Source: a virus
Lineage: Duplodnaviria; Caudoviricetes
DNA length: 33,887 nucleotides
Strand: one strand, 5' to 3'
Virus record (IMG/VR): IMGVR_UViG_3300020453_000440
Location: 1 to 33,887 of that record
The notes beneath the pieces are model-generated. The model had not been told where the DNA came from. It saw only the letters and a program-made list of their open reading frames with translations, and ran no database searches. This document shows positions 9,360-29,233 of the stretch, piece after piece. The translations under genes were made by a program, and so were the position numbers. Positions within the stretch are counted from its first letter, which is position 1. Each line of letters opens with the position of its first letter.

Positions 9360-9848
9360 TTGGCCACACTTGTAACCACAGGGCGGGCGGGCCTGGCCGC
9401 CTCTGTCAAAGCCCGAAACATTTTCCTGGGCATCGGAGCGGGACAGACCGCGTGGGATGCCAACGGGGTTGATCCAGAAAACATCAACTCAACCGGCCTT
9501 TATGACGCTATCGGATACCGAAAAGCGGCCCAGGTCGATTTCGTTCAATCAGCGGCACAGGGTGCAATCAGTCTCCCGAGTGGACGTTATGACGTGAGCG
9601 CAACTGATACCAATTTGCTCTACTGCAAATTCACATTGGATTTTTCGGATGCGTCCACCTCCACCATTCGTGAAACTGGCATTTTCTTAGACGTTGTGAC
9701 CGGGGCAGGGTTGCCAGCTGGTCAAATGTTTTTTGATGCAGCCACAGAGGTCACCAGCTCGGGCACTCTCTATCTGATCGAGCACGTTTCAAGCATCATT
9801 CGGACCCCGGCAACTCGGGAAACGTTTGAGTTCGTTCTCACGTTCTAA
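9360..9848 (+). CDS. Baseplate/tail-fibre attachment structural protein
   Basis: TTG start with strong RBS AAGGAGGT; LVTTGRAGLA...IRETGIF pattern; position between gpI and fibre genes. Confidence 0.6.
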   Translation: MATLVTTGRAGLAASVKARNIFLGIGAGQTAWDANGVDPENINSTGLYDAIGYRKAAQVDFVQSAAQGAISLPSGRYDVSATDTNLLYCKFTLDFSDASTSTIRETGIFLDVVTGAGLPAGQMFFDAATEVTSSGTLYLIEHVSSIIRTPATRETFEFVLTF

Positions 9849-13057: not shown

Positions 13058-13738
13058 ATGACAACCGACACCAGAACAACCAACCAAAACTACGCGCTGC
13101 CGTACCCCTCAAACCTTCTGGCCGCTGATGTGGTCAGGCTGCGCGAGGCCCTGCAGGCGATCGACACAGACATGGTGGCCCGTCCTACGGCCACCGCTGT
13201 GACGGCTGAAATTGCCACTGCCATCAGCAATCTGGTGGGGGCTAGTTCCGCCGCCTTGGACACGCTCGAAGAGCTTGGACAGGCTTTGGCGGATGACTCC
13301 AATTTCGCCTCAACAGTGACAAACAACCTGGCCCTAAAGCTGGATAAAACCGGCGGGCCAGTCTCGGGGGCGGTGACGCTCCCAGCCAACCCCACCTCAG
13401 GCACGCTTCAGGCGGCTACTGCTCTTTATGTAGAGCAAGGCGGGAAACCTTGGGCTTCTGTGGATGACACAGCCAGCCCTTATGACGCGACAGCAAACAC
13501 CCGGCTTTTAGTGGACACCACTAACGGGGCTGTGACGGTCAATCTTCCTGGCTCACCAGCGACTGGCGATTATGTCGAGTTTGTTGATGCAGCCGGTAAA
13601 TTTGATGCGAACAACCTCACGGTGGGTCGCAACTCTCTAAACATCATGGGCCTTGCTGAGGACATGACTGTTGCCAAACTCAACGCCAGCTTCCGGCTGG
13701 TTTATGCAAACGCCACTCAAGGCTGGAGGATTAACTAA
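13058..13738 (+). CDS. Tail fibre protein
   Basis: LVGASSAALDTLEELGQAL.DD.NFASTVTN.LA fibre repeat and VDTTNGAVTVNLP..PATGD.V domain. Confidence 0.8.
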   Translation: MTTDTRTTNQNYALPYPSNLLAADVVRLREALQAIDTDMVARPTATAVTAEIATAISNLVGASSAALDTLEELGQALADDSNFASTVTNNLALKLDKTGGPVSGAVTLPANPTSGTLQAATALYVEQGGKPWASVDDTASPYDATANTRLLVDTTNGAVTVNLPGSPATGDYVEFVDAAGKFDANNLTVGRNSLNIMGLAEDMTVAKLNASFRLVYANATQGWRIN

Positions 13739-14931
13739 TGAGCACCCTTTCCCAATTCATGTCAGGTGGTGGCGGCGGCGGCGAAGGCCCCCGCAACGCC
13801 TGCAAAATGTGGAACTCTGCTAGCGGCGGAGCCCACAACCAAGTCAGCAGCTACTCAATCAACACCTCCGCGTACACCTGGACAGTTCCTGCGGACTTTG
13901 ACGTGAGCGTTCCGCTCCGTGTTTATGTCTGGGGCGCTGGCGGTTGCGGCGGTGAGTACGCCGGCAGCGGCAACAGCTACGGCGGCGGCGCTGGCGGCCT
14001 GGCGATTTCTGAAATCACCACCCTGACCCCTGGCGACACTGTGACCGTGACGATCGGCGCTGGCTGCCGTTCCTACAACGGCCAAGGCGGCACAAGCTCG
14101 TTCGGCAGCTTCCTGTCTGCTACTGGCGGTAACGCTGGTTACAACAACAGCAACAACCAAGGCGTCACCACATACGGTGCTGGCGGCATGGGCGTGAACG
14201 GCAACATCAGCAACTGGCGCGGCGGCTACGGCGGCTACGGCTCTACCAACTCCAGCTCTGGCCATGGTGGCGGCGGCGGTTCTGCCCCCTCCCCAGACGG
14301 TGACAAGCACGGCTTCCAGGGTGGACATGCCACTAGCTACCAAGGCGGTGGCGGTGCATCCATCAACTTCAATGGAACCTACCCCTACACCAGTTACACA
14401 TCCGTCGGTGGCTCTGGTACGGCTGGATACGGTACTTCTAGCGTTTCCGCTTCGACCTATTACGGCTACGGCGGCGCTGGCGGCGCTGGGATCCTGGGTG
14501 CAGGCGGTCGCGGTGCAAGCGTCAACAGCTACTCAAACACCGCCCAAAACACGGGCGTTGCAGGTGATGGCCAAGGCCACTCAATCTGGACGCCAAACAT
14601 GATCCTCCTCGGCGGAGGCGGAGGCGGCGGCGGCGCTGCAACCATTCATAGCTCTGAGCAAACTGGCGGCAACGGTGGTTGCGGCGGCCCTGGTGCTGGC
14701 GGCGGTAGTGCTGCTGTTTATAGCTCCGGTGCTTCTACCAGCTACATGGTTGCCGGTAACGGTGGCATGCTCGGCGGCGGCGGCGGCGCTCCTCAGTACA
14801 GCATCGGTGGCTCTGGCGGTAACGCTGGCGGCGGCGGTGGATCAGGCTATGGCGCTTACAGCGCAGATCACTGCAACCACGGCTGGGGCGGTGATGGCCT
14901 CATCTTCATCCAATACAAAATCATCTTCTGA
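13738..14931 (+). CDS. Glycine-rich fibre/adhesin protein
   Basis: WTVPA...VYVWGAGG.GG and many GGGGG/GGxGG runs ending GGDGLIFIQY; coupled to the fibre gene. Confidence 0.7.
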   Translation: MSTLSQFMSGGGGGGEGPRNACKMWNSASGGAHNQVSSYSINTSAYTWTVPADFDVSVPLRVYVWGAGGCGGEYAGSGNSYGGGAGGLAISEITTLTPGDTVTVTIGAGCRSYNGQGGTSSFGSFLSATGGNAGYNNSNNQGVTTYGAGGMGVNGNISNWRGGYGGYGSTNSSSGHGGGGGSAPSPDGDKHGFQGGHATSYQGGGGASINFNGTYPYTSYTSVGGSGTAGYGTSSVSASTYYGYGGAGGAGILGAGGRGASVNSYSNTAQNTGVAGDGQGHSIWTPNMILLGGGGGGGGAATIHSSEQTGGNGGCGGPGAGGGSAAVYSSGASTSYMVAGNGGMLGGGGGAPQYSIGGSGGNAGGGGGSGYGAYSADHCNHGWGGDGLIFIQYKIIF

Positions 14932-14942
14932 GGAGCACTGAC

Positions 14943-15368
14943 ATGAAACTTTATGCAAGATTGTTTGAGGATGGCCGGGTTGCAGAACTGCACTCTGGCG
15001 ATCCCAAAACAGATTTCTGTGCTGCTGTCGCGGACCTTTTCGTAGAGGTTCCCGAAGGCACAGGGCTTAACGACAAAAAGACTTCTAAAGGGTTTGAAAA
15101 ATACCAACCCCCTGAAGTCCCTGCGCCCCCGACGCCTGAAAGGCACCTTTCAGAAGCTGAACTCAAAAGCTTTATGACTCGTTCAGAGCGCATCGCCTAC
15201 AAGGCGGCTGCTGATTCTGATCCGATCATTGCTGACTTTGCAGAAATGGTTGCACTGCGCCCGCAAAAAGTCAAAGACGCAGACACTGTCGAGGCCATCG
15301 ACAAAATGCAGGAACTCAAGGTGCTGAGCGCAGCACGCGCGACTGAACTGAAATCATTGGAGGTTTGA
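14943..15368 (+). CDS. Hypothetical protein, possible fibre assembly chaperone
   Basis: RBS GAGGAG; position after fibre genes. Confidence 0.5.
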   Translation: MKLYARLFEDGRVAELHSGDPKTDFCAAVADLFVEVPEGTGLNDKKTSKGFEKYQPPEVPAPPTPERHLSEAELKSFMTRSERIAYKAAADSDPIIADFAEMVALRPQKVKDADTVEAIDKMQELKVLSAARATELKSLEV

Positions 15369-21928: not shown

Positions 21929-22633
21929 ATGGGATTTATTGCCCGCGCATTTGAGCATTACGAGGGCTTGCCGCATCAACGCGAAGCAATCGCCAAGCTT
22001 GAGGGGATGGTGCCCCCGCACTGCGTCGAGGCTTTCGCCAAAGTTTTCAGCCCTGACACTGAATCTGAGCGCGTCTTGCCTGTGCCATTTATGAGCCAGC
22101 TCGACAATGCACTAATGGCGCATCGGACCTGCAACCCGTCAAGCTGCGCGATGTGCCTGGAATACTTAGAGCCGGGCATGATCAACGGCGACGACGATCT
22201 GATCGTCGAAATGGAAAAGCGCGGATGGGACGTGACGAACCACACCGCGATGACCAAAATTTTGCGGCTCTACGGTCTGGAATCTGTGTTTCGCTACGAC
22301 CTGACAAAGCAGACCCTACAAAGTGAAATAGCTGCAGGCCGTCCGGTGGTTCTGGGCATCTTGCACAAAGGCCCAGCGGCTAAACCTTGGGGCGGTCACA
22401 TGATCGTTTGCGTGGGCATGGACCCAGCGGAAGACGCAGTGATTTGCCACGACCCTTATGGCTCACTTTTGGATGGCTACTCTGGAGCTGCAGAAAGTGG
22501 AAAATTTGTGAGCTATCCATGGCGCGAATTGCGCGCCCGCTGGACAGTAGAAGGCCCCGGATCTGGCTGGGGCCGCATCTTCCTAACCTCAAAAACACAG
22601 GAGACCCCAAATGACAATTTCAGAGCTGCTTAG
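21929..22633 (+). CDS. Peptidase C39-like (papain-fold) protein, putative endolysin
   Basis: LPVPFMSQ, C.PSSCAM (catalytic Cys), GRPV, GHMIVCVG (His), HDPYG (Asp). Confidence 0.8.
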   Translation: MGFIARAFEHYEGLPHQREAIAKLEGMVPPHCVEAFAKVFSPDTESERVLPVPFMSQLDNALMAHRTCNPSSCAMCLEYLEPGMINGDDDLIVEMEKRGWDVTNHTAMTKILRLYGLESVFRYDLTKQTLQSEIAAGRPVVLGILHKGPAAKPWGGHMIVCVGMDPAEDAVICHDPYGSLLDGYSGAAESGKFVSYPWRELRARWTVEGPGSGWGRIFLTSKTQETPNDNFRAA

Positions 22634-22760
22634 CAACCCTGCAACCTGGATCATCCTGGCCGCCGTGTCAGAAGTGATCGCCCTGAGCCCACTGCGCTCA
22701 AACTCGATCATTCAGCTTTTGCTGCAGGCTGCCTTCTCACTGAAGCCAAAAAAAAACTAG
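22611..22760 (+). CDS. Small holin-like membrane protein (49 aa)
   Basis: RBS CAGGAG; MTISELLSNPATWIILAAVSEVIALSPLRSNSIIQLLLQAAFSLKPKKN, hydrophobic with a basic C-terminus. Below the ORF-track cutoff. Confidence 0.7.
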   Translation: MTISELLSNPATWIILAAVSEVIALSPLRSNSIIQLLLQAAFSLKPKKN

Positions 22761-23104
22761 GAACGAACATCCCGCCAGACGGCCGTTGGCTTTTCCGCTT
22801 CAATTCCCGAAGCCCGATGGAAACGCTGCGGCGCGCTCTGGCGGCAAAAAAATTCCACGCAACGTTGGGAGGGAAACTCGATGCTGAGATTTCTAAGGTC
22901 TCTGATCTTCTGGACCGCCAAGAATCACGGAGTGACGGAGCGGCCCATGGGCTTCAAGGTGAATTCACTGAGCACCCCATCGATCCCGAAAACGTCGGCA
23001 CCCCAGCCGAAGCCCTCGGAGGCCCTCTCAGTTGGTCGCTCTCTATTAGTCGAGACGAACAGGAAACAGAGACAGGCGATGATCCGCCAGCTGGCTCTAC
23101 ATGA
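22757..23104 (+). CDS. Hypothetical soluble domain, probably expressed as a -1 frameshift extension of the 49-aa protein (or from ATG 22817)
   Basis: The -1 frame is open from the A AAA AAC site to 23104. Confidence 0.55.
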   Translation, partial: LGTNIPPDGRWLFRFNSRSPMETLRRALAAKKFHATLGGKLDAEISKVSDLLDRQESRSDGAAHGLQGEFTEHPIDPENVGTPAEALGGPLSWSLSISRDEQETETGDDPPAGST

Positions 23105-23495
23105 GGGGCTGAGGCTAAAGCCCTATAAATGCACAACAGGGGCGCTCACGATTGGGTACGGGCGAAACCTCGATGCGCGTGGCATCACTGAGGCAGAGGC
23201 CGAAATGATGCTCTCTCATGACATCGACGATTTCCAAGACCGCCTCTTGCGCGAGATCCCGTGGATGGCGGAGCTGTCACCTGTGCGCCAGAGAGTGCTG
23301 CTGGATATGGCATTTAATCTTGGCATTTCTGGCCTTCTTAAATTCCAAAGAACCCTAGCGGCCGTGCGAGGTGAGGAATACGAACGCGCCGCCGCGATGA
23401 TGCTGGACAGCCGATGGGCCACACAGGTTGGGCAGCGCGCAAAGCGCCTTAGCCGGATGATGGCCACCGGGCAGATTCCTCCAGAGCTGAAATGA
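23079..23495 (+). CDS. GH24 (T4-lysozyme-like) muramidase
   Basis: LHEGLRLKPYKCTTGALTIGYGRNL, VLLDMAFNLG, DSRWATQVGQRA; most likely start is ATG 23079. Confidence 0.9.
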   Translation: MIRQLALHEGLRLKPYKCTTGALTIGYGRNLDARGITEAEAEMMLSHDIDDFQDRLLREIPWMAELSPVRQRVLLDMAFNLGISGLLKFQRTLAAVRGEEYERAAAMMLDSRWATQVGQRAKRLSRMMATGQIPPELK

Positions 23496-23713
23496 GCGAC
23501 GCAGTCGACAGGCCGGCCCACTATGTGAAAGGGGGCGTTGAGTGCATCGACGCTGTGGACGCGGCCATTAGTGACCTGGAGGGCGTGGAGGCTCACTACA
23601 CAGCCAGCGCGATTCAGTATCTCTGGCGCTGGAAATCGAAAGGGGGCGTTGAGGATCTGCAAAAGGCCCGCTGGTATCTGAACCGGCTGATTGCGGCGGC
23701 TTCCATTGACTGA
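23492..23713 (+). CDS. DUF3310-family protein
   Basis: VDRPAHY..GGVECIDA...YLWRW..KGGVEDLQKARWYL. Confidence 0.9.
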   Translation: MSDAVDRPAHYVKGGVECIDAVDAAISDLEGVEAHYTASAIQYLWRWKSKGGVEDLQKARWYLNRLIAAASID

Positions 23714-24806
23714 GATATGCCGCGGCCTGATCGACTGCGCGCCTGCGCTCTCGTTTCATCAGGTGGCTATATCTGGCCGTTGTCGCGGTTGAGGCGTGGC
23801 CCAGCAGCTCGCCAATCACGCCCAGCGTGTGACCTGAGCTGATCAGGTAGCTCGCGAAAGTGTGGCGCAAATCATGCACCCAGAGCCCGCCCACCTGGGC
23901 GTCGGCTTTGAGGCGTGACCACGGCTTGTGATGTTCTTTGAGGTGGTTTTTTCCTCGGCCCCTTATGAGCCACTCGCCGGGCGGTTCGTGGTCCCGCAGC
24001 TCCATGACCACGCGCAGCGCGTCAGTTCCTAGCACTATCTCCCGGTGCTCGGTTCTGTCGCGTTTGTGTTTTTCCGGCCGGATCACTTGGTCGACTAAGT
24101 CGACTTCTGACCACCGGGCCGACATGATTTCGTTAAGCCTGGCGCCCGTAAGCATCAGCAGCTGGATCATGCAGGCAAACCGGAAATGGATCCCGCCTTG
24201 GGCTTTTCTTTCGCGCAGCACCGCCAGCAGGCGGTCGACTTCATCCGGCGACGCATAACGGCGACGCGCCTTTTCCCAGTGGTGTTCTATCCCCTCGCAG
24301 GGGTTGTGGTGATCGCGGGGCAGCCAGCCCCAACGCTTGGCCAGGCTCATGGCCTTGGAAAGTGTTTCAAGGCACCTGTTCGCGGTGACCTGTTGTGGAT
24401 GTGCTGCGTGCCAATCCCAGAGGGCCGCCTGGTCAATATCCTGCAGGCGCCAGCCACCGAAGGGGGCCAGCAGCAGGTGGTTGCGGAAGTATCCGCAATC
24501 ATTGAGGGCCGCCCCCGCGCTTTTCCTGGGCCGCGCCCATCGCTCCATAAAGGCAATGTGCAGGTCAGCCAACGTTTTGTCTGTTTTCCGCTCCCGCTTC
24601 ATCGCGGCTGGATCCTCCCCCGCGAGAACCGCCACACGGAGCCGTCCCGCCTTCTCCCTGGCCTTGGTGACGGACATTTGCCCCACGTCCCCCAGTTTGA
24701 GCTGACGGTCCCACCGCCCATTGAGCCCGTACCTAAAGACCCAGGATTGGCCCCGGCTGATGCACAGCCCCGGCACTTTTGAATCACTCTCCCAACGTTT
24801 CGCCAT
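23568..24806 (-). CDS. int: Tyrosine integrase with N-terminal arm-binding domain
   Basis: WESDSKVPGL...SWVFRY arm domain; catalytic TGARLNE, HDLRH, LLGH, ARY. Confidence 0.95.
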   Translation of the reverse strand: MAKRWESDSKVPGLCISRGQSWVFRYGLNGRWDRQLKLGDVGQMSVTKAREKAGRLRVAVLAGEDPAAMKRERKTDKTLADLHIAFMERWARPRKSAGAALNDCGYFRNHLLLAPFGGWRLQDIDQAALWDWHAAHPQQVTANRCLETLSKAMSLAKRWGWLPRDHHNPCEGIEHHWEKARRRYASPDEVDRLLAVLRERKAQGGIHFRFACMIQLLMLTGARLNEIMSARWSEVDLVDQVIRPEKHKRDRTEHREIVLGTDALRVVMELRDHEPPGEWLIRGRGKNHLKEHHKPWSRLKADAQVGGLWVHDLRHTFASYLISSGHTLGVIGELLGHASTATTARYSHLMKRERRRAVDQAAAYLSQWKPPQSAGSDTSGPFADPQRPLSISSARDTESRWLCSEPPRPPGH

Positions 24807-24823
24807 ATCGTTTCCCCTCGAAT

Positions 24824-25088
24824 CTCGGACCGCGCAGGGACCGCAAATTTTTCGGACCGCGCATGATCTCTGGTTATCTGCCGGGAATCATGCGCCAGGC
24901 TGTGGCGCAAGTAAATGAAAGAATTTCAACGGGTTATGACCCGGAAGGAACAACAGGGATGGCAGCCCGTAGGGGAATCGAACCCCTCTTTCCAGGTTGA
25001 AAACCTGAACGGTTTTCCACATTTCCCCAACGTTTTCAACAACTTGCGAGGTGCAGTGTGGGCCTCGGACCGCGTAGGGACCGCGTAG
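24824..25088. repeat. Integrase arm-type direct repeats flanking the att core
   Basis: CTCGGACCGCGYAGGGACCGC at 24824-24844 and 25064-25084 (1 mismatch); extra CGGACCGCGC at 24853-24862. Confidence 0.8.
24960..25007 (-). other. attP core: 3' half of tRNA-Glu(TTC)
   Basis: The minus strand reads CAGGTTTTCAACCTGGAAAGAGGGGTTCGATTCCCCTACGGGCTGCCA: anticodon arm with TTC, T-arm, acceptor 3' strand and CCA, but no 5' half. Lies upstream of int. Confidence 0.9.
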
Positions 25089-25157
25089 CAAATTCCATGG
25101 CACGGGATCAAAAACTGCGCCAGCGTGGGCCATGCACCTGTGACAACCTGCCGCACG

Positions 25158-25442
25158 ATGACTTGCAGAATTTGCCCAAAGTGTGAGGCCAAGTTTATGG
25201 ATGGCCAGCTTTTTTGGTCAACTGGGCAGAAGGGCGACCCTGAGGTTTTGGCCAATCTGGTCTGCGATCTCCCCCAGGTGCAGAGGGGCGGCGGGTGCAT
25301 CAATCAATTCAAAAGCAACCCCGCAAAAGACACATGGGAAAAGCGCCGGGCGTTTGCTGATGCAATGGCTGATGAGATGGACCTGCCAGCTGGCAGCAAA
25401 GATTTTGAGCCTCGGGATTTTCTGCCGGGGTTCGACGACTGA
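25158..25442 (+). CDS. Cys-rich hypothetical protein of a type recalled from cyanophages
   Basis: CPKC.A...GQLFWSTG..G....LANLVC...GCIN...DTWEKR; family recalled from memory. Confidence 0.65.
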   Translation: MTCRICPKCEAKFMDGQLFWSTGQKGDPEVLANLVCDLPQVQRGGGCINQFKSNPAKDTWEKRRAFADAMADEMDLPAGSKDFEPRDFLPGFDD

Positions 25443-25461
25443 ACAGCGATACCCTGAGCCT

Positions 25462-25722
25462 ATGGATGAGGGGCAACAGCTAAGCGACGCAGCCGGGGCA
25501 CCCGAGTGGATGGCCACGGGCCTGCCCCTTGAGATTGAGTTTGAGTGCGAGAGCACCGTGCGCCGGGTTGATGAGCTGAACGGAGAGCAGGCCCAGGAAC
25601 TGGCCCGAGTCGCTCTCCGCCACAATTTCCGACTGGTCAACATGCTGCGCCAGTCGATCGATCGAGTCGCCTACCTAGAGGAAGTGATTGACGACATCAT
25701 CGAGAAGCCGACTGATCAGTGA
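25462..25722 (+). CDS. nblA: NblA-like phycobilisome degradation protein
   Basis: LPLEIEFECESTVRRVDELNGEQAQEL aligns without gaps to the recalled NblA core LSLEQQFSIRSFATQVQNMSHDQAKDF. Confidence 0.65.
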   Translation: MDEGQQLSDAAGAPEWMATGLPLEIEFECESTVRRVDELNGEQAQELARVALRHNFRLVNMLRQSIDRVAYLEEVIDDIIEKPTDQ

Positions 25723-25912
25723 GGTTCGTGATCCGGTACTGATCGCCATTCACTAGGCCTAGCTCATACAGCACCATGTAGGCGCGCTCACGGGTGAGGA
25801 ATCGCCAGGCGTGGATTTTTTCGCGCCAGACAATCCCACGTTCCTCGGTAAAACAGAGGAACCCGTCTGGCCCCTCGACGGCGAAGTTTGCCTCTGGGTG
25901 TGATGAACTCAT
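25697..25912 (-). CDS. Hypothetical protein
   Basis: Start overlaps the stop of the upstream minus-strand gene (ATGA coupling). Confidence 0.55.
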   Translation of the reverse strand: MSSSHPEANFAVEGPDGFLCFTEERGIVWREKIHAWRFLTRERAYMVLYELGLVNGDQYRITNLTDQSASR

Positions 25913-26217
25913 GGCCTCAACTCGGTTCGACGTTGGATCTCCGCGCAGGCTTTCGCGTTGCTCTGGACGTGACACCCATCGATCAAGCGGGGCAGGCTCC
26001 AGTTTTCAAGCTTGCTGTCATGCCAGGCGTGAACCGCCATGCCCACACCAATGACGGTGTAGACGCCAGCGATCAGCCAGCCGAGGCGGTAGAGCCGCCG
26101 TTCGATCTTGGGTAGGCGCACGGTGATGATGTGATCGTTTGCCCGCTGCCTCGCAATGGTGGCTTGAGTGGCGGGATAGGGGAAGAGCTGAATAGCTCTG
26201 TGATTATGTTTTTTCAT
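25909..26217 (-). CDS. Hypothetical single-pass membrane protein
   Basis: LGWLIAGVYTVIGVGMAV hydrophobic segment; ATGA coupling with the upstream gene. Confidence 0.6.
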   Translation of the reverse strand: MKKHNHRAIQLFPYPATQATIARQRANDHIITVRLPKIERRLYRLGWLIAGVYTVIGVGMAVHAWHDSKLENWSLPRLIDGCHVQSNAKACAEIQRRTELRP

Positions 26218-26594
26218 GCGGCTTCTCTCAGTCGGTTGCTCATGACGGCGCCCAGCAGTCTGCCTTCCACCCAGTCCGGGCGGTTCTCTTTGCACACTTC
26301 TTCGATCGCCCAAAGCAGGGCCACCTCTGCAAAGCCTTCATGGCTGCAGGGCCACCCGTCTTTTTTCATGCCGTAATCGTCGAGGATCTGCAGCGGCCGT
26401 GAGCTGTATTGCTCCGCCTTGGCGTCAAGCATCATCCAGATATGAACGGCGTGGTCGGCATAGGTTTTGCAGACCAGCTTGCTGTTGTTGATGAGGTTCC
26501 AGGTCACGGCGCAAACGTCGAGACCGTCGCGGGCAATGATGCCCTGCTCTGTGGGATCAAGGTTGCGTGTGACCCACTGATCGATGCGTTTCAT
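26214..26594 (-). CDS. Hypothetical protein
   Basis: 126-aa ORF heading a translationally coupled minus-strand series. Confidence 0.6.
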   Translation of the reverse strand: MKRIDQWVTRNLDPTEQGIIARDGLDVCAVTWNLINNSKLVCKTYADHAVHIWMMLDAKAEQYSSRPLQILDDYGMKKDGWPCSHEGFAEVALLWAIEEVCKENRPDWVEGRLLGAVMSNRLREAA

Positions 26595-26636
26595 TAGAAG
26601 AAAGCCGGTAGAACGTAAGCGGTTTTGAGGTGGGGG

Positions 26637-26819
26637 ATGGTTTACAGGAACTGCAACGTGATCTGTTCAGACACGCCCCCTGGTGGCTGTGTTGTGGTGT
26701 GCGAGGGCTACGCAATGAGCTATTTCAAAACGCAGGCCGCAGCCCTCGCATATCTCGACATGACGGCAGAAGCCGATCAGAAAGGAATGTCAGCCGAAGG
26801 TGGCACCGGGGGCGCCTGA
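26637..26819 (+). CDS. Possible small hypothetical protein
   Basis: GAGGTG RBS-like sequence before ATG 26637; fills the gap between two minus-strand genes. Confidence 0.35.
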   Translation: MVYRNCNVICSDTPPGGCVVVCEGYAMSYFKTQAAALAYLDMTAEADQKGMSAEGGTGGA

Positions 26820-27229
26820 GCCGGTGGGGCCGCAATGGCTGCGGCGTGTGGCGTGAGAGCCTGGCTAGTCGGTGGCATCGTTGCGGCCTTTGATTCGTCT
26901 TTGGCCTTGATCAGGTCAACCGTTCCAAACTTGATCACAAGCTTTTCGCCTTGGCTGCCATCTCTGCGCGGGAAGGTTTCGCGGTGCGCTTCGCCCCGAG
27001 CGTCGATGGTGTCACCCTTGTGGAACTTATTAGCAGCGCGCTCTGCTGCCTTGCCCCACAGCTCAACCTCGACCCACCAAGTCTCAGGATCCTTCCAGGT
27101 GCCGTCCTTTTGCTTAATGCCTGGCTGCTTGACAGCCATGGCCAGCTTGCAAACGCAACTGCCTGACTCGAAATACTTCATCTCTGGATCGCGGCCCAGG
27201 TTTCCTGTGGTCTGAATCGTGGTGGTCAT
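26777..27229 (-). CDS. ssb: Single-stranded DNA-binding protein
   Basis: GNLGRDPEMKYFESG, W..VELWGK.AE, C-terminal DIPF. Confidence 0.95.
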   Translation of the reverse strand: MTTTIQTTGNLGRDPEMKYFESGSCVCKLAMAVKQPGIKQKDGTWKDPETWWVEVELWGKAAERAANKFHKGDTIDARGEAHRETFPRRDGSQGEKLVIKFGTVDLIKAKDESKAATMPPTSQALTPHAAAIAAPPAQAPPVPPSADIPF

Positions 27230-27456
27230 GGTTTGTCTGCCGGGTTGTGGTTTTTTTCGTAGGCGATCACGTCATCCACGGCGTAGATGATGCGCGCGCC
27301 CACTTTTGTGAATTTCGGCCCAATGCCTTGGTGACGCCAGTTCGCGAGCGTATGGGTGGCCATGCACCAATAGTCGGCCAGCTCCTTTGGTGTCAGGAAC
27401 ATTTTCGGCGGTTCATCGCCGAGGGCCAGGTGCTTTAACGGATGGTCATCTGTCAT
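27226..27456 (-). CDS. Excisionase-like HTH protein
   Basis: FLTPKELADYW....TLANWR..GIGPKF.KVG.RI.Y; RBS GGGAGG before ATG 27456. Confidence 0.85.
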   Translation of the reverse strand: MTDDHPLKHLALGDEPPKMFLTPKELADYWCMATHTLANWRHQGIGPKFTKVGARIIYAVDDVIAYEKNHNPADKP

Positions 27457-27599
27457 CAGAACCTCCCTTAGGCGGGGCCGTCGACGGGGACGCCCAGTTT
27501 GAAACCCGCCGGTTCCAATGCTTAGGGCTCGATTTCCGTTGGCTAGTTGGCATACAAGGCCGGCCGCATAGGTAGCGGGTCGGCGTTGCAATCCGTTGG

Positions 27600-28379
27600 C
27601 TAATTGTTGTCATTCTCTTCCTCGCTTTTCTCTACGAGGGCAGGCGCCGGGCACACCTCCCCCAGTTGGTTGCTTAGGGCAGGTCTCTCCGGTTCTCCCT
27701 GGGTGATCACTACCGGCTGAACAGCCGGCCGATCAGATTGTTTTAATAACGCATCCTGCAGGGAAACATTATTGCCGACAGACTCATTTAGTCTTTGTTT
27801 CCCTTGCGTCAAGTTTGCGTCTCCCCTAGGTGCAGAGTCGACAACATCGAAGCCCAGCAAAATCTCAGGGCAATGCAGATCGATCAGCCATTTTGCCGAG
27901 CGCCAGCGCAGCATTTGCTCGGGAATGGTTGAGTATTTTTTGTTGCGGGTCCAGCCCTCAGCGGCTGCAATTTTCCAACTGAGCGTCACTTCTGCAATGT
28001 CGCCATCGCTTAACGGCGCGTAGGCCGTCACCTCCAGATCTTCTTTTTTGTCGCCTTTGTCGATCTTCCAGCGGATTGGGCCGGCAAAGACTTTGGCGCG
28101 GTTGGCCAGTGCAACGGCAAATTTTGCTGTGTACGCTGGCCGGCCGCCGATCATAAAAACGTTCTGAACCGCCGTAAGCGGGCTGATTCCCAGCTCGACA
28201 GCGAGTTGCACGACAACAAAGCAGTCGTGGGGATTCTTTTGGAAGTTCGCCGGGACCATGCTGCTAGCAGCAAAAGCATTGGCAAGACGCCAGCAGTCAG
28301 CGAAATTGTCGTGCTGCGGGACAGGATCTGCAGGGCGATCATCGGTCTGAATGGTGATGGTTTTGGTTTCGTCAGTCAT
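27600..28379 (-). CDS. RecT-like single-strand annealing protein
   Basis: SSMVPANFQKNPHDC...ELGISPL...IGGRPA...PEQMLRWR; ATGA-coupled to the exonuclease gene. Confidence 0.75.
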   Translation of the reverse strand: MTDETKTITIQTDDRPADPVPQHDNFADCWRLANAFAASSMVPANFQKNPHDCFVVVQLAVELGISPLTAVQNVFMIGGRPAYTAKFAVALANRAKVFAGPIRWKIDKGDKKEDLEVTAYAPLSDGDIAEVTLSWKIAAAEGWTRNKKYSTIPEQMLRWRSAKWLIDLHCPEILLGFDVVDSAPRGDANLTQGKQRLNESVGNNVSLQDALLKQSDRPAVQPVVITQGEPERPALSNQLGEVCPAPALVEKSEEENDNN

Positions 28380-29233
28380 AGTGCCCACCTCGGAAGGCTT
28401 AGGGAAGAGATCTGTTTATCGAAGCCGGGCCACTCGTCTTTTTCCTGGCATTCCTTGAAACGCTCCAGGGCCTCGCGGTACTGACGACGGCCGGTCTCCA
28501 TTAGTTGTTCGTCGCATTCGTAAATGGCGACGGCGTAGGGGGGTTCCTTTTCCACCACCACAAAGAGGAAGTTTTCAACCGGCCCCCAGTCGCCCGAGGC
28601 GGTGATCAGATCGGTGTAAAACGCGGCCTGCCAGTGGTACTTGAAATTGGCCACGGACTTGCCGAAGCCGGTTTGCCCTGCGCCGCCATAACGACGGCTG
28701 CAGGTTTTCACATCGATCACATAGGTTTTGCCGGCAACGGTCGCGATCCGGTCCGCTTTGCACTTGAGCATCATCCCGGTTTCAGGGTCGACCGCCTGGC
28801 AAACCTCTTCGCTGTAGCCGCCCTGGCCCTCGACGAGAGCGGACGCTAGCGGTGATTTGCGGATCGCGGTCTGCATCTTGTCGACACAGTCCCAGATGTC
28901 AGCGGGCAGGGCCTCGCGGTCGCCGATGTTGGCGGCCCATTCTTTGTGCGCCTCTTTGCCGGCTTTCGTTCGTTTGTCGAAACTGGCCTCTTTGATGAAC
29001 CGATCGTGAAACACTTGCGGCCCTTCGAGCACATGGGTGTGCAGGGCGGTGCCCGTAATTAGCGCGGGTGACGTTGTTTCCGGTTCGCGGTCGGGGTTCA
29101 GGTATCGCTCCCAGTAGTAAAGGGGGCAGTCAGCGAACAGCTTCAAACCTGAATAATTGACCGCCTGAAGCGCCCGGTATTGGGGATCAGGCATCTGCAT
29201 AGGTAGAACTCCCAGATGTTCCCGCGAGGTCAT
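28376..29233 (-). CDS. RecE-like PD-(D/E)XK exonuclease (DUF3799/ExoVIII type)
   Basis: GTALHTHVLE, KCKAD, IDVKT, YHWQAAFY, FLFVVVEKEPPY. Confidence 0.9.
   Translation of the reverse strand: MTSREHLGVLPMQMPDPQYRALQAVNYSGLKLFADCPLYYWERYLNPDREPETTSPALITGTALHTHVLEGPQVFHDRFIKEASFDKRTKAGKEAHKEWAANIGDREALPADIWDCVDKMQTAIRKSPLASALVEGQGGYSEEVCQAVDPETGMMLKCKADRIATVAGKTYVIDVKTCSRRYGGAGQTGFGKSVANFKYHWQAAFYTDLITASGDWGPVENFLFVVVEKEPPYAVAIYECDEQLMETGRRQYREALERFKECQEKDEWPGFDKQISSLSLPRWAL

Follow-up and report, generated by a model that had tools for sequence, protein, structure and literature searches.

Results

Organization of the att region

The DNA analysed here, referred to throughout as the window, is the 33,887-nucleotide stretch comprising positions 1 to 33,887 of IMG/VR virus record IMGVR_UViG_3300020453_000440, a linear virus record with a completeness of 73%. 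Its genes encode a fused protease-capsid protein, a P2-like contractile tail and lysis proteins, along with a tyrosine integrase and an excisionase-like protein; RecE/RecT, a helicase and a Prim-Pol primase are encoded as well. The relatives G001 (48,061 bp) and G002 (47,975 bp), both full-length, are colinear with the window and match 40 of its 42 proteins, mostly at 55–94%. The sequencing runs that contain window DNA are marine metagenomes except for one with a coded label. Our subject is the phage attachment site (attP) beside the integrase gene, which carries a piece of a Rhodobacterales tRNA gene in a genome with cyanophage-type genes. An earlier note on this DNA had pointed out the paradox, and both of its sides held when tested.

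The attP core occupies positions 24960–25007 on the minus strand and consists of the 3′ 48 nucleotides of a Rhodobacterales tRNA-Glu(TTC), with the encoded CCA at 24960–24962, as had been noticed before. The 7-nt anticodon loop lies at 24997–25003 and is flanked by a perfect 4-bp inverted repeat. ARAGORN detected no whole tRNA at this piece; Rfam scored the core as tRNA at 29 bits, equal to the gathering score. An exact-match scan covering 8 of the 64 parts of the GTDB collection found the core identical over 48/48 nt at no fewer than 120 loci, from which ∼990 such stretches are estimated overall. By record title, 114 of these loci are Rhodobacterales as judged by the genera named, four are “Pseudomonadota bacterium,” two are “Alphaproteobacteria,” and none is cyanobacterial. 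Plasmid and chromid matches to the core, at 94–96%, are from Rhodobacterales too. These exact matches agree with the Rhodobacterales type assigned to the core in the earlier note.

Identity of the phage core with the host tRNA gene starts 4 nt ahead of the anticodon loop, the position at which lambda-type tRNA-targeting integrases cross over. By analogy with these enzymes, the crossover is likely to fall in the anticodon-loop region, at 24993–25007 on the minus strand, where the loop stands within its inverted repeat.

Five 7-bp direct repeats surround the core, all on the minus strand and all kept in relatives. Three arm-type repeats of families D1 and D2 lie on the integrase side (24827–24833, 24838–24844, and 24854–24860, together spanning 24827–24860), and two lie in the distal arm (25067–25073 and 25078–25084, spanning 25067–25084). 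Two sites on the plus strand resemble the box bound by integration host factor (IHF), each with one mismatch: one between the core and the integrase-proximal arm (24924–24936), which has the perfect consensus in relatives L134 and L135, and one on the distal side (25034–25046). One-mismatch matches number 13 across the window against 11.1 expected, an absence of enrichment, so only the conserved position of the boxes counts. At least one box was present in 7/7 att regions tested from the tRNA-Glu clade, perfect in two. The IHF-like motifs reported earlier are thus present and kept in position in relatives, but taken alone are no better than chance. IHF genes are present in Rhodobacterales, and none was found in the phages of the lineage. 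Cyanobacteria are described as lacking IHF, in line with the earlier note (PMC5683647).

The tyrosine integrase gene (23568–24806, minus strand) encodes an arm-binding domain (PF13356) and has all the catalytic residues of the R-K-H-R-H-Y set in place (Arg-223, Lys-248, His-311, Arg-314, His-337, and Tyr-346). Against six relatives, nonsynonymous divergence (dN) was 0.19–0.26 and synonymous divergence (dS) 1.0–2.9, with dN/dS of ∼0.09–0.22, and the enzyme is intact and under purifying selection. Its best match in cultured phages, at 36%, is uninformative for host. An excisionase-like helix-turn-helix protein (HTH_17) is predicted at 27226–27591 on the minus strand from profile matches to phrog_66 and phrog_7735. 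With a core made of the 3′ end of a host tRNA gene beside the integrase gene, repeats on both sides to pair with an arm-binding domain, and an intact catalytic set, the region has the appearance of a complete attP and the integration module that of a lambda-type system, as judged from sequence.

The last ∼48 integrase codons (23568–23713) overlap a convergent DUF3310 gene on the other strand, an extension retained in close relatives.

Two core alleles in one phage population

Across the lineage, the core is identical at 40–48 of 48 positions (24/24 in one cut contig), compared with 28–46 of 60 in the integrase-side flank. G001 and several other members carry a T-stem variant with four compensatory changes, for which an exact tRNA-Glu match exists in 9 of 401 Rhodobacterales genomes. 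Within the window's own population these same changes recur at four positions (24972, 24974, 24984, and 24986), with no other difference listed over 6 kb. In runs X1 and X2 both core alleles are joined to phage flank, at depths of 11.7 versus 5.6–14.1 and of 21.1 versus 10.9, respectively; in runs X3, X4, X6, and X7 the spanning contig carries the variant allele. The contigs of run X8 did not cover the att flanks, and runs X8–X24, with small word shares, were otherwise unused. One phage population therefore holds two core alleles, both of them natural Rhodobacterales alleles, an observation that is new here.

In the integrase tree the variant allele falls in three branches, intermixed with the common allele. 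The allele difference stops at the tRNA block, and other phages differ within 2–5 nt outside the block. Most simply, this pattern would reflect recurrent exchange with the tRNA genes of the host, for which phage DNA would have to be present in roseobacter cells.

The tRNA-Glu of several relatives (L133, L136–L138, L249, and L251) is a complete hybrid that has a 5′ half of host type and a leader resembling a promoter. In four of the hybrids (L136 9730–9849; also L133, L249, and L251) there are two stem mismatches and the leader is conserved. Such a hybrid could yield a perfect tRNA from either junction, depending on the host isoform. The leader lacks the −7 T, as alphaproteobacterial promoters likewise do; a σ70 scan of it returned 0 sites. 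Five large low-GC (guanine plus cytosine) phages with tRNA arrays (L324, L328, L330, L331, and L333) carry a tRNA-Glu 3′ half that is the same, or nearly the same, as that of the full-tRNA subgroup. They were considered as kin and set aside as unrelated phages with no assigned host.

Integrity of the assembly

Host tRNA genes, which are abundant, contain the same 48-nt piece, and some contigs break at it, so a chimeric join, or a chance likeness to a tRNA, had to be considered. A second assembly is 99.93% identical to the window over 18.5 kb across the att site. Single contigs cross the site in four runs (X4 and X7, compared over 6 kb, and X3 and X6, compared over 1.4 kb), and the two ∼48-kb relatives are colinear. 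The tRNA-Glu piece is present in 18/18 loci that have an integrase of at least 64% identity and DNA upstream of it (L133–L140 and L244–L253, some records being counted twice; another four loci end short of the site). Spanning contigs and divergent relatives with the same layout led us to reject a chimera; an artefact of this kind, or a chance likeness, we regard as highly improbable. The misassembly at 23700–25150 that the earlier note wished to see checked was not found.

Cyanobacterial-type genes and DNA composition

Beyond the distal arm lies a gene for a CPKC-motif protein (phrog_484; 25158–25442, plus strand, with 25158 the most likely start). All 338 of the 338 matching cultured-phage records are named Synechococcus, Prochlorococcus, or “Cyanophage,” as expected from its earlier description as cyanophage-like, and its look-alike clusters are mostly from Cyanobacteriota. 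A search of Rhodobacteraceae genomes, run without a positive control, found the protein in 0 of 251.

The adjacent gene (25462–25722, plus strand) is predicted to encode an NblA-like protein, likely a phycobilisome-degradation adaptor, on the basis of a match to Pfam PF04485 and a structure ranking. The Pfam score is 17.6 bits against a cut-off of 25, and the open reading frames (ORFs) of relatives score lower or not at all. In the structure comparison, NblA chains ranked 1, 2, and 12 of 48,161 against the ORF model, with a Z-score of 6.2, below 8, and a root mean square deviation of 2.1 over 52 residues. The nearest Atlas cluster is 39% NblA, and a further NblA comparison gave an E value of 0.37. 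Foldseek with the model returned no match, and cultured phages gave nothing better than E 0.8. ORFs similar to this one adjoin the att site in relatives. The NblA-like label used before thus has the top of the structure ranking in its favor, although the ORF falls below the Pfam cut-off and a Z-score of 8. In one low-GC relative (L184 3978–4629) two tandem NblA-like ORFs stand beside the att site, and neither gives a Pfam NblA match.

The lysis region contains a C39 peptidase and a 49-residue membrane protein (21929–22760, plus strand), respectively 40% and 57% identical to gp24 and gp22 of Synechococcus phage S-CBS1; 11 of the 13 records matching the 49-residue protein are named Synechococcus phage or Cyanophage. 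The helicase, VRR-NUC protein, and primase are 44–59% identical to those of Synechococcus phage S-H1. The primase best matches S-H1 at 44%, yet proteobacterial phages reach 40–41%, and the “Prim-Pol style” earlier called cyanophage-like is a weak pointer by itself. Against three roseophages, the window proteins gave one weak match in total. By gene content the phage would be classed as a cyanophage, since it appears to carry genes restricted to cyanophages or cyanobacteria. DUF4278, tried as a further cyanobacterial marker, was weakened by its presence in Rhodobacterales genomes.

GANTC is the site of the alphaproteobacterial methyltransferase CcrM (bioRxiv 10.1101/2021.03.08.434416). Its observed/expected ratio is 0.82 in the window, 0.82 in G001, and 0.72 in G002, compared with 0.89–0.97 in three cyanophages, 0, 0.44, and 0.47 in three roseophages, and 0–0.16 in the tail regions of three roseobacter prophages. 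In this small panel the window and its two relatives resemble the cyanophages and show no depletion. Tetranucleotide correlations are low and lean to cyanophages (0.56 with S-CBS1 versus 0.38–0.47 with roseobacter regions).

Proteobacterial-type features outside the att module

A second lysin, a GH24 lysozyme (23079–23495, plus strand), is closest to phages of proteobacteria; its 29 matches include no cyanophage among those named. The statement that the lysis genes are cyanophage-like accordingly fits the C39 peptidase and the 49-residue protein and fails for the lysozyme. The P2-like tail genes are 27–55% identical to roseobacter prophages. Shine-Dalgarno-like motifs precede 19 of 30 window genes versus 12 of 33 and 9 of 35 in two cyanophages, in hand-picked gene sets. 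The capsid has a best match of 38% in cultured phages, with mixed hosts.

The two lysins adjoin one another at 21929–23495, the C39 peptidase of cyanophage type and the lysozyme of proteobacterial-phage type, and the pair is retained in most sister phages.

Sister phages with other tRNA targets

Relatives whose integrases are ∼40% identical have the tail, C39 peptidase, and lysozyme in common with the window and carry pieces of tRNA-fMet, -Lys, or -Arg. The best plasmid matches of the Lys and fMet pieces are alphaproteobacterial. One distant relative (G780) has a tail fibre 73% identical to that of the window and a different integrase; its att piece is 100% identical over 45–46 nt in 4 of 251 alphaproteobacterial genomes. 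A Cyanobium record is the named source of one sister integrase. A provirus, G778, is related through the tail module (∼27–53%), has a repressor, and is without the cyanophage-type genes.

In four sister loci (L143 526–602, L146 8827–8903, L148 9648–9724, and L187 3204–3280) the att core has contracted to the anticodon arm of tRNA-fMet, and just beyond the arm repeats stands a second tRNA-fMet, complete and of a different type, with best plasmid matches of 92%.

Other features of the genomes

RecT and RecE (exonuclease VIII), identified by profile matches at 27600–29233 on the minus strand, would probably offer a way for the core to be exchanged with DNA of the host or of other phages. The tail-fibre cassette is variable: window 13738–15368 encodes a glycine-rich fibre of 397 residues, the one shared at 73% with G780, and the corresponding region of G001 (22816–25931) and G002 (26039–29123) encodes a fibre of 527–535 residues and two ORFs that by eye resemble 2OG-Fe(II) oxygenases. 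A baseplate protein on a 229-kb contig (P0218) is 69% identical to window 9360–9848 and may mark an integrated member of the wider family.

Relation to known systems

Lambda-type heterobivalent tyrosine integrases target the tRNA anticodon loop in alphaproteobacterial islands and prophages. The window module resembles these systems in its arm-binding and catalytic domains, the arm repeats on both sides, the IHF-like boxes, the 3′ tRNA half with CCA, and the helix-turn-helix excisionase. Roseobacter island integrases (among loci L227–L241) are 33–37% identical to that of the window, and some adjoin fMet or Lys tRNA pieces. The tRNA piece of the window differs from those of the islands and the sister clade in reading toward the integrase, and the module differs from known islands and prophages in that its carrier has cyanophage-type genes and no integrated copy was found.

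Among cyanophages, the T7-like P-SSP7 and S-TIP37 have an integrase and an attP and integrate rarely, without stable lysogeny (Shitrit et al., PMC8776855). They share with the window lineage a cyanophage integrase with a tRNA-derived attP, and in the window lineage likewise no classical repressor was found. They differ in that all 11 attP sequences match the cyanobacterial tRNA-Leu of the lytic host, whereas the window attP matches another phylum; the window phage is moreover a P2-like myovirus whose attP has IHF-like boxes. BAC21E04-like marine cyanophages are also uncultured and combine nblA with an integrase, but they form a different lineage of ∼86 kb with psbA, talC, and a DNA polymerase, linked to a Synechococcus island, and the available text reports no cross-phylum att site (Flores-Uribe et al., 10.1101/325100). 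nblA in T7-like cyanophages is dealt with in PMC12695635. The Synechococcus siphoviruses S-CBS1, S-H1, and KBS-S-2A share the C39 lysin, 49-residue protein, RecE, SSB, helicase, VRR-NUC protein, and primase at 32–59%, but have no contractile tail, and their three records contain no match to the window integrase.

Cyanophage-like myoviruses have been reported in the Roseobacter single cells AAA076-E06 and AAA160-J18 (Labonte et al., PMC4611503), which suggests that cyanophage-like DNA can be inside roseobacter cells. Those phages are large, T4-like, and lytic, are described without att evidence, and may have been attached to the cells; the link in the window is a heritable attP that tracks host alleles across a lineage. 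We found no description of this lineage, or of a cyanophage-like phage with an alphaproteobacterial attP, in a literature search that covered few subscription journals; supplements, such as the integrase-att table of PMC3861242, may bear on the point.

Discussion

The two sides of the paradox can be joined in a two-phylum life cycle, in which a ∼48-kb marine myovirus is lytic mainly in picocyanobacteria and integrates in roseobacters; we consider this the best explanation, at about even odds. Slightly more tentative is the wider proposal that ∼48-kb myoviruses of this kind form a widespread family in marine and fresh waters and combine lytic growth and phycobilisome sabotage in picocyanobacteria with site-specific tRNA-gene integration in neighboring alphaproteobacteria, the heterotrophs being a refuge without a repressor and DNA being shuttled between phyla.

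In such a cycle, the integrase and host IHF bound at the two boxes would bring about crossover in the 7-nt anticodon loop of the roseobacter tRNA-Glu gene, and the 3′ half supplied by the phage would rebuild a working tRNA-Glu after integration. Recombination between the duplicated halves, by RecET or host enzymes before or during excision, may then replace the T-arm of the phage with the host allele; we propose that this swap is why exchange is confined to the tRNA block. Lacking a CI-type repressor, the phage might persist only transiently as an integrated copy, or be quiet by default in a foreign host, and residence in roseobacters would be rare or transient. The second, proteobacterial-type lysozyme could serve for release from roseobacters. 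In picocyanobacteria the phage would follow a lytic cycle, in which the NblA-like and CPKC genes would help to take over the host.

Several results weigh against this proposal. No attL or attR junction occurs among 30 IMG/VR matches to the core, and no host DNA stands beside the core in close-relative loci, two records that begin in or just before the core being uninformative. Searches of 401 Rhodobacteraceae genomes (where the best integrase match reached 39% over part of its length and 36% over the full length) and of 151 relatives of a variant-allele host (best sheath 58%), both samples of larger groups, found no member of the lineage. The 85 closest integrase clusters (E < 1e-58) are all on contigs shorter than 60 kb, and the short-word contigs of Logan cannot resolve a junction through a 48-nt shared core. 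G001 and G002 contain no CI-type repressor (HTH_3), which is present in the provirus G778, although other repressor folds are possible. Two expectations for a temperate Rhodobacterales phage thus failed, a CI-type repressor and depletion of GANTC (0.72–0.82 versus 0–0.47 in six controls); the GANTC comparison covers few genomes, and depletion is also absent from two distant relatives, one of them a provirus. The runs that contain the phage may be its own source samples. In a published test, 374 pooled cyanophage lysates formed no plaques on any of 34 Roseobacter strains (PMC4611503). Recombination between co-infecting phages could account for the allele swap. None of 301 alphaproteobacterial genomes contained the 3′ half of the full-tRNA subgroup, an argument against a simple pairing of every allele with its own host, and the L133 T-stem had no match in 401 Rhodobacterales genomes. 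The NblA scores lie below their thresholds, and DUF4278-like ORFs occur in a non-phage setting in 3 of 201 Rhodobacterales genomes (L357–L359).

Many of these results would fit a phage of cyanobacteria only. The int/att module would then have come from phages or islands of alphaproteobacteria and be refreshed when co-infecting phages recombine, and it would be retained for some other function or for occasional dead-end integration. The host-takeover and composition signals are all cyanobacterial; no prophage, junction, or CI repressor was found; T7-like cyanophages retain integrases without stable lysogeny (PMC8776855); and the tail module and GH24 lysozyme, with a proviral relative that has a repressor and no cyanophage genes, would agree with a host switch long ago. 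Drift would, however, be expected of a relic core, and this one is near-invariant and shifts to a real Rhodobacterales allele by four compensatory substitutions. The exchange stops at the tRNA block when other phages differ within 2–5 nt outside it, IHF-like boxes are maintained although cyanobacteria lack IHF, and no member of the tRNA-Glu clade has been retargeted. We therefore regard a purely cyanobacterial phage as unlikely. Of the options set out in the earlier note, a one-off module swap is unlikely because the core remains at 40–48/48 while integrase synonymous sites are saturated, and because it switches between real Rhodobacterales alleles and sisters use other alphaproteobacterial tRNAs. 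Lysogeny in a heterotroph is the best supported of those options, though no junction or prophage was found, and a misjudged host is kept as a rival.

A misjudged host would mean that the phage is temperate in a pelagic Rhodobacterales lineage that is unsequenced or poorly assembled, and that it drew its cyanophage-type genes from a shared marine pool. Identity of attP with a host tRNA is a standard host signal (PMC3861242 and PMC4490671), and the IHF-like boxes, the proteobacterial-type lysozyme, the roseobacter-prophage-like tail genes, the share of Shine-Dalgarno-like motifs, and the full-tRNA leader without the −7 T all point the same way. The CPKC and NblA-like genes, however, are retained throughout the lineage, and a heterotroph would offer them no known target; the CPKC protein is missing from the 251 Rhodobacteraceae genomes. 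GANTC is not depleted, no prophage was found, and the window proteins have almost no matches in three roseophages and several in Synechococcus phages. We consider a phage confined to roseobacters improbable.

If the two-phylum cycle is true, the lytic host and the integration host of one phage would belong to different phyla, a situation at which single-cell data hint but which has not been shown before. The claim lends itself to direct testing, now that its host target, the sequences of the junctions, and two diagnostic alleles have been established. The cycle would offer a possible explanation for the lack of intact prophages in marine picocyanobacteria despite reported induction in natural populations, and it would open a route for gene flow between Synechococcus and roseobacters. 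Host prediction by attP-tRNA matching and by gene content would both be right and yet disagree; under the rival explanations too, the lineage is a clean warning case for host prediction.

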